From IMG/VR virus record IMGVR_UViG_3300048919_000048, positions 1-64,000 of that record: 64,000 nucleotides of DNA; one strand, written 5' to 3'. Position 1 is the stretch's first letter. Each line of letters opens with the position of its first letter. This document shows positions 5,492 through 20,260 of this stretch, one piece after another. The notes below the pieces were generated by a model. It ran no database searches. It was not told where the DNA came from and was given only the letters and a program-made list of their open reading frames with translations. The DNA is from a virus. A program made the position numbers and the translations under genes.

Positions 5492-5527
5492 CCCCACATG
5501 TCCAAAACATGCCAAAGAGGAACACCT

Positions 5528-5914
5528 ATGAAAACCTGCCTAAAGAGACGGACCACTTACACCCAGGTCGCGCCTACCGTGGCTCACCTGTGGGGCGCTG
5601 ACCTACGGGAGCGCCGTAGACTCAAGGCCGACTTAGATGCCATGAAGAAGAGTGTCGATGAGGAGTACGCCAAATCTTTACGGTACAGGGAGTATATGGA
5701 ACTGTGTGACTCCATCATCCATTGCCGCACCAGTAAGGGAAAAGTCGGTGTTGAGTACCCGATACTCCGTAGACGCATCCGGGAATGGGTTACCAATGGC
5801 CCAACCACAACGGGTCAGTGGAACGGCATCAAGGTATGCCTCATGCGCCACAATAGAGAACACCTCCAGTATTTCCCACACTCTGTAGCAGAGCCAGCCT
5901 ACGTCCACATATAA
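5528..5914 (+). CDS. hypothetical protein
   Basis: GAGGA RBS, own promoter and terminator. Confidence 0.7.
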   Translation: MKTCLKRRTTYTQVAPTVAHLWGADLRERRRLKADLDAMKKSVDEEYAKSLRYREYMELCDSIIHCRTSKGKVGVEYPILRRRIREWVTNGPTTTGQWNGIKVCLMRHNREHLQYFPHSVAEPAYVHI

Positions 5915-5935
5915 CCGCCTCCGGGCGGTTCTTTT
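5913..5935 (+). terminator. Rho-independent terminator
   Basis: AACCGCC-TCCG-GGCGGTT-CTTTT. Confidence 0.75.
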
Positions 5936-6594
5936 GTATCTTCCCTCCGTGATTTTGTTTCCCACACTGGTAGACCTGAAGAGGCACACTTGAGTCTAAC
6001 CCACCGCCTGAAGAGGCAGACCTGTGCATAACTTCGGCGTCAGCCAAAATGGTTTACAATCCCGAATGTCGCCCAAAATGGCTGACAAGATTTCCTGATT
6101 TCTCCCCACATTGTCAAGACCTTTCTGAAGAGGCGCACCACCCCGTCCGGGAGGCCCTCTCCCGCCGGGATAAATCCGTTATACCTGTTCCCACAGAGAC
6201 GTACCCGTCTGTATTCCCACATTGCCCAAATATCAAGGGAGCCGGAGAGGCTCACCTGTAAGGCGCTGTGCCCTCTTTTTATGTCAAAATACCCTCCCGC
6301 CAAAATTTTTAGGACGCGATCAGGGGTGGTCCTTCTTGCCCAGAAACCAGAAAAATATCCCAGCGTATGGATATAGCTGCCAGGCATGGCGATCAGGGGG
6401 TGGGGAGGGGCCTCGTTATTTTCCCCAAATATCCTTATGAATCAATGAGTTAGCCCTTCTCAGCCTTTGCCCAATCGAACCGGGGAGGTCCCCGCTTTAC
6501 GTGATCAACTCCACAAAATGTCTACCATCTTGCCCATCTTTACACTTGTCCTATTGACTCATCGGTCTGACTGTGCATCACGCCGCTGATACCC

Positions 6595-6622
6595 ATTTAA
6601 CATAATACACCTTATACGCACC
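6595..6622 (-). other. dif: dif-like XerC/XerD recombination core site
   Basis: Minus strand GGTGCGTATAA-GGTGTA-TTATGTTAAAT vs E. coli dif GGTGCGCATAA-TGTATA-TTATGTTAAAT: XerD arm 11/11, XerC arm 10/11, 6-bp spacer. Confidence 0.85.
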
Positions 6623-6625
6623 CGG

Positions 6626-6874
6626 GATAATGATAATCATTCCCAACACGTGGAGAGGCCCGCCAGCACTGGCCCAGATGAGAATGGGTCTCACTCACCT
6701 TGTGGCATGATAATGAGAATGATTCGCACTCGCCCTTTGAGAATGGTTCGCGGATGAGAACCATTATCGTTTACGCAAAAACAAAATAAAAATTATTTTT
6801 CTATTGACACGAAGAGCGAATTTTGCCAGGCAATTACGCCATATCTGTACACTTTGCGAACGATAATCATTACC
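6626..6874. promoter_or_regulatory. cluster of Fur-box-like operators (left array)
   Basis: GATAATGATAATCATTCCC at 6626 (17/19 to the Fur consensus); further boxes at 6679, 6709 (15/19), 6738, 6755, 6856 (15/19). Confidence 0.75.
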
Positions 6875-7067
6875 ATCTGAGGCCCTCCGGCCCGTACCGG
6901 GTCCGCCTCTTCAGACATCTTTATGCAGATAAGATGCATTCTCATTCATAATCTTTTTGCAGATAAGACTTGACTTTGTGCGTTTACGCACTAGATTACA
7001 GCCCGGTTTACCGGGTGAAAGTAAGCGTAATAAACTCTTGACTTTCAAGGCTAAAGCCTCAACAAAT

Positions 7068-7176
7068 GACCAATAGAAAACAGGTATAAGCGGTCATCCC
7101 TTGACCGTGGGAACGTGAGCAAAAACCGTTGCGAGTTAGCAACGGGGGTTGATCCGTTACCTGTTTTCTATTGGTC
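7068..7176. repeat. 19-bp perfect inverted repeat enclosing a nested hairpin
   Basis: GACCAATAGAAAACAGGTA (7068-7086) / TACCTGTTTTCTATTGGTC (7158-7176). Confidence 0.85.
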
Positions 7177-7266
7177 GCGCCTCCGGCGCGCCCTCCCTTG
7201 ATCCGTGGGAACGTAAAACCCGGCTTTTCTCAGAAGTCAATAAAAAGTTAAGTTATTGATAGTAAA

Positions 7267-7281
7267 TGAGGATCATTCTCG
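7267..7281. promoter_or_regulatory. Fur-box-like site
   Basis: 7-1-7 form TGAGGAT-C-ATTCTCG. Confidence 0.5.
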
Positions 7282-7588
7282 CATTATGCAGATAAATGAA
7301 TAAATAGTGTCAAGTTATGTAAAGAAAAGGTGAGTTAGTCAATTGTGGCCTGATACACGTTTGCAGATAGAAGTCAATAGGGTCTAAAACGCTCTGTAAG
7401 GCTCTATGCGGGCCGCTATTCTCAACCCTGGCTAGTGGGTTAGCGCTTCAGTTATTCAATTATGCGCTTTAAAGTGAATAAAATTAGATGTTGATTTCCA
7501 CAATTGGAGGTGATAAGGGAAAGGATCTAAGAGTTGGGGGAGTCGGACCGATACCGGGCCGGGCCTGCTGGCTTGCCACGTTTGGGAC

Positions 7589-7616
7589 AAAAGAAAAGCC
7601 CGCCGGGGTGGCGGGT
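7589..7616 (-). terminator. terminator closing the leftward island
   Basis: CCCGCC hairpin followed on the minus strand by TTTTCTTTT. Confidence 0.65.
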
Positions 7617-7620
7617 CTCT

Positions 7621-7869
7621 TCAGTTTAGGCAGGTAACCAGGGCGGGCAGTGATAGCGCCAGATCATAACGGTTTATTGATTTGCCACGATAGGCAAGGC
7701 GGGCCGTTGCCAGTGTAGCGCCAAAAACGTTTAAAAATGTTGTGACCATTTGATCGGGTCCAAGTACAGCGGACAAAATCCAATTGTTGACCGTATCGCC
7801 AGAAAAGGCAATGAGGACCGCTAAAGCGGCCCACAATGGTAGATTGATTTTAAAAAGGCGGTTCATCAT
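7621..7869 (-). CDS. small membrane protein
   Basis: 82 aa, hydrophobic segments; ATGA overlap. Confidence 0.65.
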   Translation of the reverse strand: MMNRLFKINLPLWAALAVLIAFSGDTVNNWILSAVLGPDQMVTTFLNVFGATLATARLAYRGKSINRYDLALSLPALVTCLN

Positions 7870-8240
7870 GCGCCGAAAGTGCGGGTGTGGTTGTTGTCTC
7901 GCTCAATCATCACCGCCAGGCGGATCAGTTGGTCAGTTGTATCCTTCAGACTGTCCGGCCAGGTTTTACCGTTCCAACAATCTAAGTTTGATTCGATGTA
8001 ACTTTCCAGCGCTTGATCCATGCTATCAAACATGTTTTCTTTCAGGCTTTCGGATGTCTCACACTGAAAAGCGTTTGCCACGCTGTTAATCAGCAAGCAA
8101 GCCAGGTGATCGGCGTTGCGCCAGTTTTTACGGATGTTTTCATCTTTCAGGTAGCCGATCAGGTTGACCTGTGCGCCAGTGGTGGAGGTTGCGATCACTT
8201 CGTAAGCTTTTTCGATTGCGTTGATAGCTGATTTGGACAT
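7866..8240 (-). CDS. hypothetical protein
   Basis: ATG 8240 after GGAGA; own promoter at 8284-8312. Confidence 0.75.
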   Translation of the reverse strand: MSKSAINAIEKAYEVIATSTTGAQVNLIGYLKDENIRKNWRNADHLACLLINSVANAFQCETSESLKENMFDSMDQALESYIESNLDCWNGKTWPDSLKDTTDQLIRLAVMIERDNNHTRTFGA

Positions 8241-9021: not shown

Positions 9022-9041
9022 GGGAATGATAACCATTCTCA
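9022..9041. promoter_or_regulatory. Fur-box-like site
   Basis: GGGAATGATAACCATTCTC, 15/19; intergenic. Confidence 0.65.
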
Positions 9042-9077
9042 TTTGCCCAGCGCGGCCCAGGTCCGGTCCGCCTCCCT

Positions 9078-9107
9078 GAATAGCGGGCAGGTCCGGTGTT
9101 TGTCTCC
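9078..9107. repeat. 30-bp element, exact inverted copy of 19601-19630
   Basis: GAATAGCGGGCAGGTCCGGTGTTTGTCTCC. Confidence 0.9.
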
Positions 9108-9190
9108 CCCTGCATCAGGTGCCATCGCATGACATAAGAATAACAAAAAAGGGGCGAACAAGTCAACCCCTGGAAACACTGTTTATTTGA

Positions 9191-19412: not shown

Positions 19413-19545
19413 GATCACATACAGGAAAGGACACGCCACCCCACGGCGAAAAGGCGGGGCTAACGTACCGGGCACCGGGGCCAGGTCGGAAGGTGGATCG
19501 CCGGGAGTTCGTCTAAAATAGTTTCGTAAAGAAACGTAAAGACGC

Positions 19546-19574
19546 TTGCAACCGGGGCGGGCCGGGGCTATATT
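19546..19574 (+). promoter_or_regulatory. second rightward promoter
   Basis: TTGCAA-N17-TATATT. Confidence 0.55.
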
Positions 19575-19600
19575 ATACACATAGCGGGGAGAATTGACCC

Positions 19601-19630
19601 GGAGACAAACACCGGACCTGCCCGCTATTC
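19601..19630. repeat. 30-bp element, exact inverted copy of 9078-9107
   Basis: GGAGACAAACACCGGACCTGCCCGCTATTC. Confidence 0.9.
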
Positions 19631-19636
19631 TGGAGA

Positions 19637-19747
19637 TGAGAATGATTCTCATTCAACAACCTGAATGCGAATGATTATCAGTTGCATTTGCAAATGAGAA
19701 CGATTCTCATTCCGCCCCGGGCGAGACGAGAATGATAACGATTTGCA
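19637..19747. promoter_or_regulatory. cluster of four Fur-box-like operators (right array)
   Basis: TGAGAATGATTCTCA 19637, TGCGAATGATTATCA 19666, TGAGAACGATTCTCA 19695, TGATAACGATTTGCA 19733. Confidence 0.75.
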
Positions 19748-19778
19748 TTTCGATTTTCACCTCTGTATAGATTTTGAG

Positions 19779-19955
19779 AATACGTTTTCGAAAATGAAAT
19801 TTCGATCGAGACCCCGGCGCGAGACCTGTACCTGTACCGAGAATACGATCTGGAAATTGAAAAACCGATCGAGACCCCGATTGCTGTACCGAGACCCGGG
19901 TCCGAGTAACCCGAGAGAAAATACGATTTGGAAAATGAAAAGTCGATCGAGACCC
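19779..19955 (+). repeat. three 36-bp direct repeats AATAC-N20-GATCGAGACCC
   Basis: copies start 19779, 19842, 19920; fourth copy at 30869-30904. Confidence 0.85.
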
Positions 19956-20260
19956 TCAAATTTCTTGATGGTTCATAACTCCAGTATTGTAACGTTTATG
20001 TACCATTAGTGGTGCATAAGCCCCCGAATGTAACATTTATGGTGCAACATGTGCTGATCCCGTGTGGGGTGTGCTGGTACATTGGCGAATAAATCTGAAA
20101 AAGAAATCGGATCTGAGTTCCCGCCCGGCGGGCCATCCCAAATCAAATCTCAAATTGAATTTCGAATTGAAATCTGGTTTCAAATATCCTTGCAAATATC
20201 AAGGGTAAATATCAAATCGAAAATCGACCTGAAAACTGAGCCGTCCTTGGCTCACAAATA

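Follow-up and report, generated by a model that had tools for sequence, protein, structure and literature searches.

Why should a lytic phage carry, in a gene-free part of its genome, a close copy of the dif site at which XerC and XerD act on the chromosomes of its hosts? The question is raised by a 64,000-nucleotide stretch of viral DNA (positions 1 to 64,000 of IMG/VR record IMGVR_UViG_3300048919_000048; hereinafter the window), whose minus strand displays such an element at 6595-6622, with an array of boxes resembling Fur operators next to it. The phage is strictly lytic, and its 28-mer is, judged by sequence, a true XerC/XerD site of the dif type, at which recombination is predicted. We give roughly even chances to the reading that it is a working site, at which host XerCD recombine two phage copies to cyclise or resolve the genome; that XerCD would at least bind it is likely.

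A dif-type site with a non-host central region

The element has the form GGTGCGTATAA-GGTGTA-TTATGTTAAAT and agrees with the dif site of Escherichia coli at 21/22 arm positions, including the whole of the XerD arm (11/11); no shuffled sequence matched it comparably (0/100). The central 6 bp are bounded by the inner motif ATAA-GGTGTA-TTAT, so that the element shares with the chromosomal dif/XerC-XerD/FtsK system of Enterobacterales the same 11-bp arms, a 6-bp central region, and the inner ATAA-N6-TTAT. An exact copy of the reference dif 28-mer, whose spacer is TGTATA, is carried by the chromosomes of Enterobacter, Erwinia, Klebsiella, Serratia, Pantoea, Brenneria, Raoultella, E. coli, and others. 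Set against it, the phage spacer GGTGTA differs at 2/6 positions, namely 1 and 4, the former of which adjoins the XerC cut. An earlier note, made from the letters of the window alone, had counted 21 of 22 matching arm positions and two spacer differences from TGTATA, and both counts stand, with a single arm mismatch and against a reference verified in bacterial chromosomes. The phage site further departs from chromosomal dif in belonging to a virulent phage and not to the terminus of replication, in showing no polarity of FtsK-orienting polar sequences (KOPS) around it, and in that phage relatives hold two direct copies of it on one linear DNA.

A central GGTGTA is also seen in the Xer sites of Acinetobacter plasmids (pdif/xrs), where it supports XerCD recombination and has been proven proficient between sites sharing it (PMC11705084), although the outer arm bases of these sites differ and pdif/xrs flank plasmid gene modules. 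The same study raises the possibility that the central region can confer FtsK independence (PMC11705084). A second point of comparison is provided by the integrative mobile elements exploiting Xer (IMEX), viz., the phages CTXphi, VGJphi, and TLCphi and the dif-integrating gokushoviruses, which have no integrase and bear a dif-like site for host XerCD. As such integrating phages are well known, the 28-mer could in principle be an attachment site for rare XerCD integration at host dif, underlying a hidden carrier state. However, IMEX phages are small, temperate or chronic, and integrate at the host dif, whereas the present phage is a 152-kb virulent myovirus whose spacer disfavours that target, differing from it both next to the XerC cut and at position 4. 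Moreover, the phage-type site with the GGTGTA spacer occurs in 0/185,579 bacterial species genomes and these 150-kb virulent phages are without known lysogens, making this reading extremely improbable.

The 1.4 kb around the site matches 24 phage records at 80-90% identity, all of which are CR3/phiTE-type members of Certrevirus (Vequintavirinae) with genomes of 142-155 kb and hosts from Pectobacterium, Cronobacter, Enterobacter, Klebsiella, or Pantoea; the window is accordingly from a Certrevirus, a CR3-like lytic myovirus. The source record, 151,943 bp long, was assembled as a closed circle whose ends overlap by 127 bp, and we reject its IMG/VR label of 'direct terminal repeats', which stems from this assembly overlap and not from physical ends. 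In all annotated relatives the site region is a gene-free tract of 1.2-1.5 kb at which rightward and leftward arrays of small genes converge. A plasmid origin of the region was discarded in the absence of any plasmid match, and an Rfam scan of 5500-8000 gave no credible match. The GC skew does not switch at the dif-like site, its cumulative minimum lying near 30.8 kb. Neither a tyrosine nor a serine recombinase is encoded in the whole 151,943-bp genome, extending what had been said of the window, and any recombination at the site must therefore be performed by host XerCD.

Conservation across Vequintavirinae

In an alignment of 13 Certrevirus genomes, the dif 27-mer (6595-6621) is the longest invariant run in 1.25 kb, the next-longest being 16 bp at 6531-6546, a Fur core of 14 bp at 6629-6642, and 13 bp at 7068-7080. 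All of the 12 fetched Certrevirus relatives (12/12) keep the 28-mer at 27-28/28 bases, spacer included, the sole variable being the first base, which is either G or A. On a wider scale, a 30-base query matches 242 phage records, nearly all 137-155 kb Vequintavirinae and kin, with hosts from Escherichia, Klebsiella, Salmonella, Cronobacter, Pectobacterium, Enterobacter, Erwinia, and Serratia.

Comparison of 21 lineages showed that the XerD arm is invariant (11/11) and that the XerC arm varies at positions 1 and 7 only, leaving 20-22/22 arm positions identical to the host dif in every lineage and 22/22 in Hena1, Av-05, and Gotham. Outside Certrevirus the 150-bp flanks of the site fall to the identity of the shuffled baseline. 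The spacers encountered are GGTGTA, CGTGTA, CGTGTT, TGGGTA, and GTTGTA, with the host TGTATA in none, and position 4, which is A in the host, is G in all lineages but one. On these alignments, the pattern of variation in arms and spacer is that of a Xer site and not of an arbitrary protein-binding block, and the site is under strong purifying selection. It is, by the same comparison, a feature of the whole subfamily rather than a local oddity, a point missed at first reading; the check proposed there, of aligning the loci of relatives for joint conservation, reveals that the arms and the adjacent Fur box are both kept in the 13 Certrevirus genomes.

Two sets of records recovered along the way deserve mention. 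The 'Campylobacter phage' records of the MG0656xx series (A142, C2, C7, and others; n=18) are 85-90% identical to the end region of rV5-like coliphages and share an E. coli-type dif site, so that their Campylobacter host label looks doubtful. In the uncultured viral contigs L018 and L042 (155 kb and 262 kb), a perfect-arm dif-like site adjoins three DnaA-box-like TGTGGATAA repeats, and a second, inverted copy of the XerD arm is present about 90 bp from the dif-like site.

Position within a proposed terminal-repeat unit

In relatives with mapped genome ends the site lies in the middle of the direct terminal repeat. In Erwinia phage Hena1 it occupies 289-316 within an annotated repeat of 519 bp and is present at both record ends; the 514-bp repeat of Klebsiella phage KPP-1 (116,316-116,829), published from coverage and PhageTerm (PMC9862379), contains it; and the 459-bp repeat annotated in Escherichia phage Gotham (PMC7471380) contains a version with perfect dif arms. 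The distance to each physical end in these relatives is about 200-290 bp. In all three phages, TGTCAA starts about 18-20 nt from the XerC-side end and GATATTT stands exactly 50 nt from the XerD-side end, and the same anchors in the window place the ends at 6827 and 6384 (Table 1). We infer that 6384-6827 corresponds by homology to the repeat mapped in these three phages, because of the anchors, a left junction as in Gotham, and a large terminase that shares 68-70% identity along its whole length with the terminases of Hena1, KPP-1, and PVP-SE1. The dif-like site would then lie 211 bp from one end of the unit and 205 bp from the other. The palindrome of the left junction, TGCCAGGCA, recurs at the right junction (6824-6832), and the layout of an A/T tract followed by TTGACA is also present in Hena1, KPP-1, Gotham, and ABPH49. 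The likeness to the short direct terminal repeat of Vequintavirinae hence extends to the boundary motifs, the internal layout, and the terminase; the difference is that two members of Certrevirus, phiTE and CB7, have been published as circularly permuted.

Table 1. Features of the region of the dif-like site, with coordinates in the window
Feature	Position	Strand or side	Remarks
Inferred equivalent of the Vequintavirinae short direct terminal repeat	6384..6827		444 bp, +/-1 at each end; placed by anchor motifs
Left junction GCTGCCA/GGC, part of palindrome TGCCAGGCA	6376..6386		Identical to that of Gotham
G-run with KOPS-like octamer 6402-6409	6396..6410	+	13 bp inside the inferred XerD-side end; chance frequency
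Invariant block TGCCCATCTTTACACT, 16 bp	6531..6546	XerD side of inferred repeat	Invariant in 13 Certrevirus genomes; no known motif matches
dif-like XerC/XerD site	6595..6622	-	XerC arm 6612-6622 GGTGCGTATAA; central region 6606-6611 GGTGTA; XerD arm 6595-6605 TTATGTTAAAT
Fur box 1 (17/19) and overlapping partner shifted by 6 bp	6626..6650		3 bp from XerC arm; predicted
Weak Fur-like box (12/19)	6680..6698		Conserved in relatives; 13/19 columns invariant
Fur-like box pair in 6-bp phase (15/19 and 13/19)	6709..6733		
Fur-like boxes (14/19 and 13/19) within GAGAATGG...GAGAACCATTATCG	6738..6774		26/37 columns invariant
A/T tract, then TTGACA (6804-6809)	6776..6809	+	Conserved anchor, 18 nt from the inferred XerC-side end
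Fur-like box (15/19)	6856..6880		Just outside the inferred repeat; specific to this phage; 4/25 columns invariant

This setting raises the alternative that the 28-mer is a packaging or replication signal for a phage protein such as the terminase, its likeness to dif being incidental. The site does fall within a unit that the terminase must recognise, and there are other invariant blocks nearby, such as that at 6531-6546. However, the arms equal host dif at 20-22/22 positions in every lineage, a quality of match not expected by chance, and variation is limited to the spacer and to XerC-arm positions 1 and 7, as is typical of a Xer site; we accordingly hold a packaging signal to be very unlikely.

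Two further observations concern the ends and terminases of relatives. Acinetobacter phage ABPH49 (MH533020) has a Vequintavirinae genome with an Enterobacterales-type dif site and the same layout of the end unit (predicted at 483 bp), and either its Acinetobacter host label or the expectation that the site matches the dif of the host is questionable. In phiTE and CB7 the large terminase gene is split, residues 1-142 and 128-495 being matched in two different frames some 0.9 kb from each other, in keeping with the insertions of introns or homing endonucleases that have been reported for CB7.

Predicted action of host XerCD

We propose that host XerC and XerD would bind the 28-mer, in which the arms of host dif are joined to a central region private to the phages, and would recombine two directly repeated phage copies of it. 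The substrate would be either the two end copies of the infecting linear DNA or neighbouring copies in replicative multimers, and the product would be a monomeric circle, the job done by Cre-loxP in P1. The non-host spacer would keep the reaction phage-with-phage and away from the host dif. The earlier note had suggested that host XerCD resolve genome multimers; the dif-type site on which this was based holds up, and in relatives with mapped ends the natural substrate would be two direct copies per virion DNA instead of a plasmid-style multimer. The resemblance to Cre-loxP lies in the proposed logic of a site in the terminal redundancy that would allow recA-independent closure of the injected DNA and resolution of multimers. 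P1, a temperate phage with headful packaging, has a recombinase gene of its own; in contrast, this phage would use the recombinase of its host.

Several points weigh against this proposal. At dif-type sites, XerCD normally depend on septal FtsK for recombination, and activation of XerD away from the septum is the weak point of the proposal: no XafT-like (DUF3653) or FtsK-gamma-like protein that might serve as XerD activator was found among the phage proteins. KOPS octamers, numbering 11 on the plus and 5 on the minus strand of the whole genome, show neither polarity toward the site nor a switch at it. Phages of the T7 type, with their short terminal repeats, do without a circle. The assembled genome has one copy of the site only. 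Further, phiTE and CB7 were published as circularly permuted on the strength of Bal-31 digestion, CB7 shows no double-depth region at 2554x coverage, and phiTE is a generalised transducer (PMC3475682, PMC7344957), and the terminal-repeat setting may therefore not hold for Certrevirus. If headful packaging starts in the region, a dif copy could, by analogy, lie in the terminal redundancy of some virions only. In P1, too, lox lies in the terminal redundancy of only some virions.

An alternative is that XerCD bind at the 28-mer, and FtsK perhaps stalls there, with no productive recombination ensuing, the site acting as a tether for pairing or capping of the ends, a landing pad together with the Fur sites, or a titrating decoy. 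It would be consistent with the apparent lack of an XerD activator, with arm conservation far beyond what chance needs, with the location of the site about 200-290 bp from each physical end in relatives, and with the presence in the same unit of other host-protein motifs of the Fur-like and IHF-like types. However, the spacer GGTGTA is kept in Certrevirus, Hena1, and pEp_SNUABM_01 despite unalignable flanks, which fits catalysis better; one or two sites per genome would make a weak decoy; and titration of Xer offers no obvious gain in a lytic cycle. Binding without recombination is hence doubtful as the whole function of the site, and recombination of two phage copies by host XerCD stays the reading we prefer.

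The KOPS octamer GGGGAGGG at 6402-6409 is oriented toward the XerD arm, as had been pointed out, yet its use as an argument for guidance of FtsK fails: there are 5 such octamers on the plus strand of the window against 5.4 expected from composition, with no polarity genome-wide, and where the octamer is kept, in 11/12 Certrevirus relatives, it is so only within a G-run, other genera either lacking it or having it in reverse. KOPS/FtsK guidance was thus rejected. The plasmid sites cer (ColE1) and psi (pSC101), which have about 180 bp of accessory DNA next to the XerC arm for PepA and either ArgR or ArcA, are comparable in that a replicon outside the chromosome has borrowed a host Xer site and that proteins bind within about 200 bp of it, on the side of XerC. 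In contrast to them, the phage site has no ARG box (allowing up to 3 mismatches) or ArcA-like match in 6300-7000, has Fur-type boxes of variable side and distance, and has arms that are dif-like and not degenerate; the accessory architecture of the cer/psi kind initially suspected is therefore not borne out. An exact match to the IHF consensus, AATCAATGAGTTA, was noticed on the XerD side at 6440-6452 and is partly conserved in relatives.

Fur-like boxes at the site and around the early region

Starting 3 bp past the XerC arm, the box at 6626-6644 matches the 19-bp Fur consensus at 17/19 positions, when 0.01 such matches are expected per window; in this the first reading of the sequence was right. 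Its mention of about five more boxes was roughly so, with three strong ones at 14/19 or better (6709, 6750, and 6856) and two weak ones (that at 6680 and one within 6738-6774). Counting clusters at >=14/19, i.e., of at least that strength, 6623-6900 has 4 against 0.015 expected, a number reached by none of the dinucleotide shuffles (0/1000). Most boxes come in pairs shifted by 6 bp (6626/6632, 6709/6715, 6750/6756, and 6856/6862), an arrangement published for the Fur sites of E. coli (PMC2189734). In their match of 15-17/19, their overlap in 6-bp phase, and their occurrence in arrays of several, the phage boxes resemble enterobacterial Fur operators; they differ from these in that most overlap no convincing promoter and that the boxes, as predicted operators, lie in phage non-coding DNA. 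Within 5800-7800 the sole promoter-like match is at 6970-6997, and the TTGACA at 6804 is without a good -10 element. A promoter role for the dif-like 28-mer itself was dropped, as no upstream -35 element is conserved across genera.

In the 13 Certrevirus genomes, the core of Fur box 1, AATGATAATCATT at 6629-6641, is invariant, while none of the linker positions 6623-6628 is (0/6), and no indels separate dif from the core. Because the linker is free to vary while its length is fixed, dif and the Fur core are, on this alignment, under separate constraint and kept at a constant distance from each other. Viewed across genera, Certrevirus, pEp_SNUABM_01, Av-05, PVP-SE1, and two uncultured relatives each have a significant Fur-like box in the repeat on the side of XerC; in Hena1 and KPP-1 such a box is of marginal strength, and UPEC06 lacks it. 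In the rV5-like phages (Gotham and L064), Fur-like boxes abut the XerD arm within 4-5 bp. As predicted elements, then, Fur-type boxes are a recurrent component of the end repeat, which touch the core in two genera and whose side and distance are not conserved. They most likely bind Fur, and would be read by the Fur of the host because the phage encodes no homologue of it.

Would Fur on the array by the XerC arm serve as an accessory or gating factor for Xer, either as an iron switch or architecturally, like ArgR, ArcA, and PepA at cer and psi? Such coupling would account for box 1 standing 3 bp from the XerC arm with its core and spacing to dif invariant and the linker free, for the boxes 4-5 bp from the XerD arm in Gotham and L064, and for the significant box located 130-250 bp out on the XerC side in pEp_SNUABM_01, Av-05, PVP-SE1, and the two uncultured relatives, 130-250 bp being the distance range of cer/psi accessory sites. 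Set against this are the variation of side and distance between genera, with the two abutting genera having the box on opposite sides and the other genera compared having it 130-230 bp away or not at all, the absence of a box in UPEC06 and its marginal state in Hena1 and KPP-1, the lack of an ARG or ArcA box, and the fact that the topological filter of cer/psi works on supercoiled circles and not on linear ends.

The distribution of the boxes over the genome bears on the same point. Of the strongest genome-wide matches to the Fur box, 10/14 fall in three non-coding loci flanking an early gene island, viz., 6626-7262, 9022-9046, and 19638-19728. The last two loci have one pair of Fur-like boxes (9022-9046) and four such boxes (19632-19752), each downstream of a promoter-like site, and their clusters are as strong as the array at the site with no dif there. 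With equally strong clusters away from any Xer site, a coupling of Fur to Xer is unlikely. The main role of the boxes is probably iron-dependent control or titration of Fur around the early region; we prefer iron-dependent promoter control or Fur titration because it explains all three loci at once, and a dedicated role of the boxes as Xer accessory sites is less likely than this.

The surroundings of the three loci show additional organization. The end region and the loci at 9022-9166 and 19545-19760 bracket the early gene island; the latter two have one copy each of a 30-bp inverted repeat (9078-9107 and 19601-19630) and no credible open reading frame. Close by, 19779-19960 comprises three units of about 60 bp in tandem, all of them terminating in CGATCGAGACCC and containing a GATC; they have an iteron- or operator-like appearance and could mark a replication origin. 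At 7067-7176, the two halves of a perfect 19-bp inverted repeat (GACCAATAGAAAACAGGT and its complement) stand on either side of one copy of the direct repeat CCCTTGAYCGTGGGAACGT, with a second copy after the stem. This element is invariant in relatives, and the record of phage PBES 02 begins exactly at its outer edge. At 6920-6975 and 7285-7375, repeated TGCAGATAA motifs adjoin -35-like boxes of the form CTTGACTTT, and at the equivalent places phiTE, DU_PP_I, CB7, and PcCB7V have insertions with extra near-perfect Fur boxes, of up to 18/19.

Implications for the biology of Vequintavirinae

The use of host XerCD is known for plasmids and small integrating phages and not for large virulent tailed phages; our literature searches turned up no account of dif in Vequintavirinae, of virulent tailed phages using XerCD, or of arrays of Fur boxes in phages of this kind. 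The literature is also inconsistent with regard to the ends of these genomes, with three genera having mapped short repeats while Certrevirus and PVP-SE1 are called circularly permuted, despite homologous terminases and boundary motifs. The most far-reaching combination of the above elements would be that the subfamily closes its injected linear genome via host XerCD, by means of a dif site with a private spacer in the terminal repeat, and that Fur beside the core makes this step iron-dependent. We consider the combination quite improbable; were it true, it would constitute a nutrient-gated entry checkpoint driven by a host recombinase in a lytic phage.

The conserved Fur-box arrays provide a second, independent lead, that of a lytic phage reading or manipulating the iron signalling of its host. 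As for the site itself, should it work as we propose, phages of the rV5 and CR3 type would need a host recombinase at an early step of infection, which would make it a new host factor and might open a way to resistance; this would be of relevance as such phages are widely used in phage-therapy and biocontrol collections.

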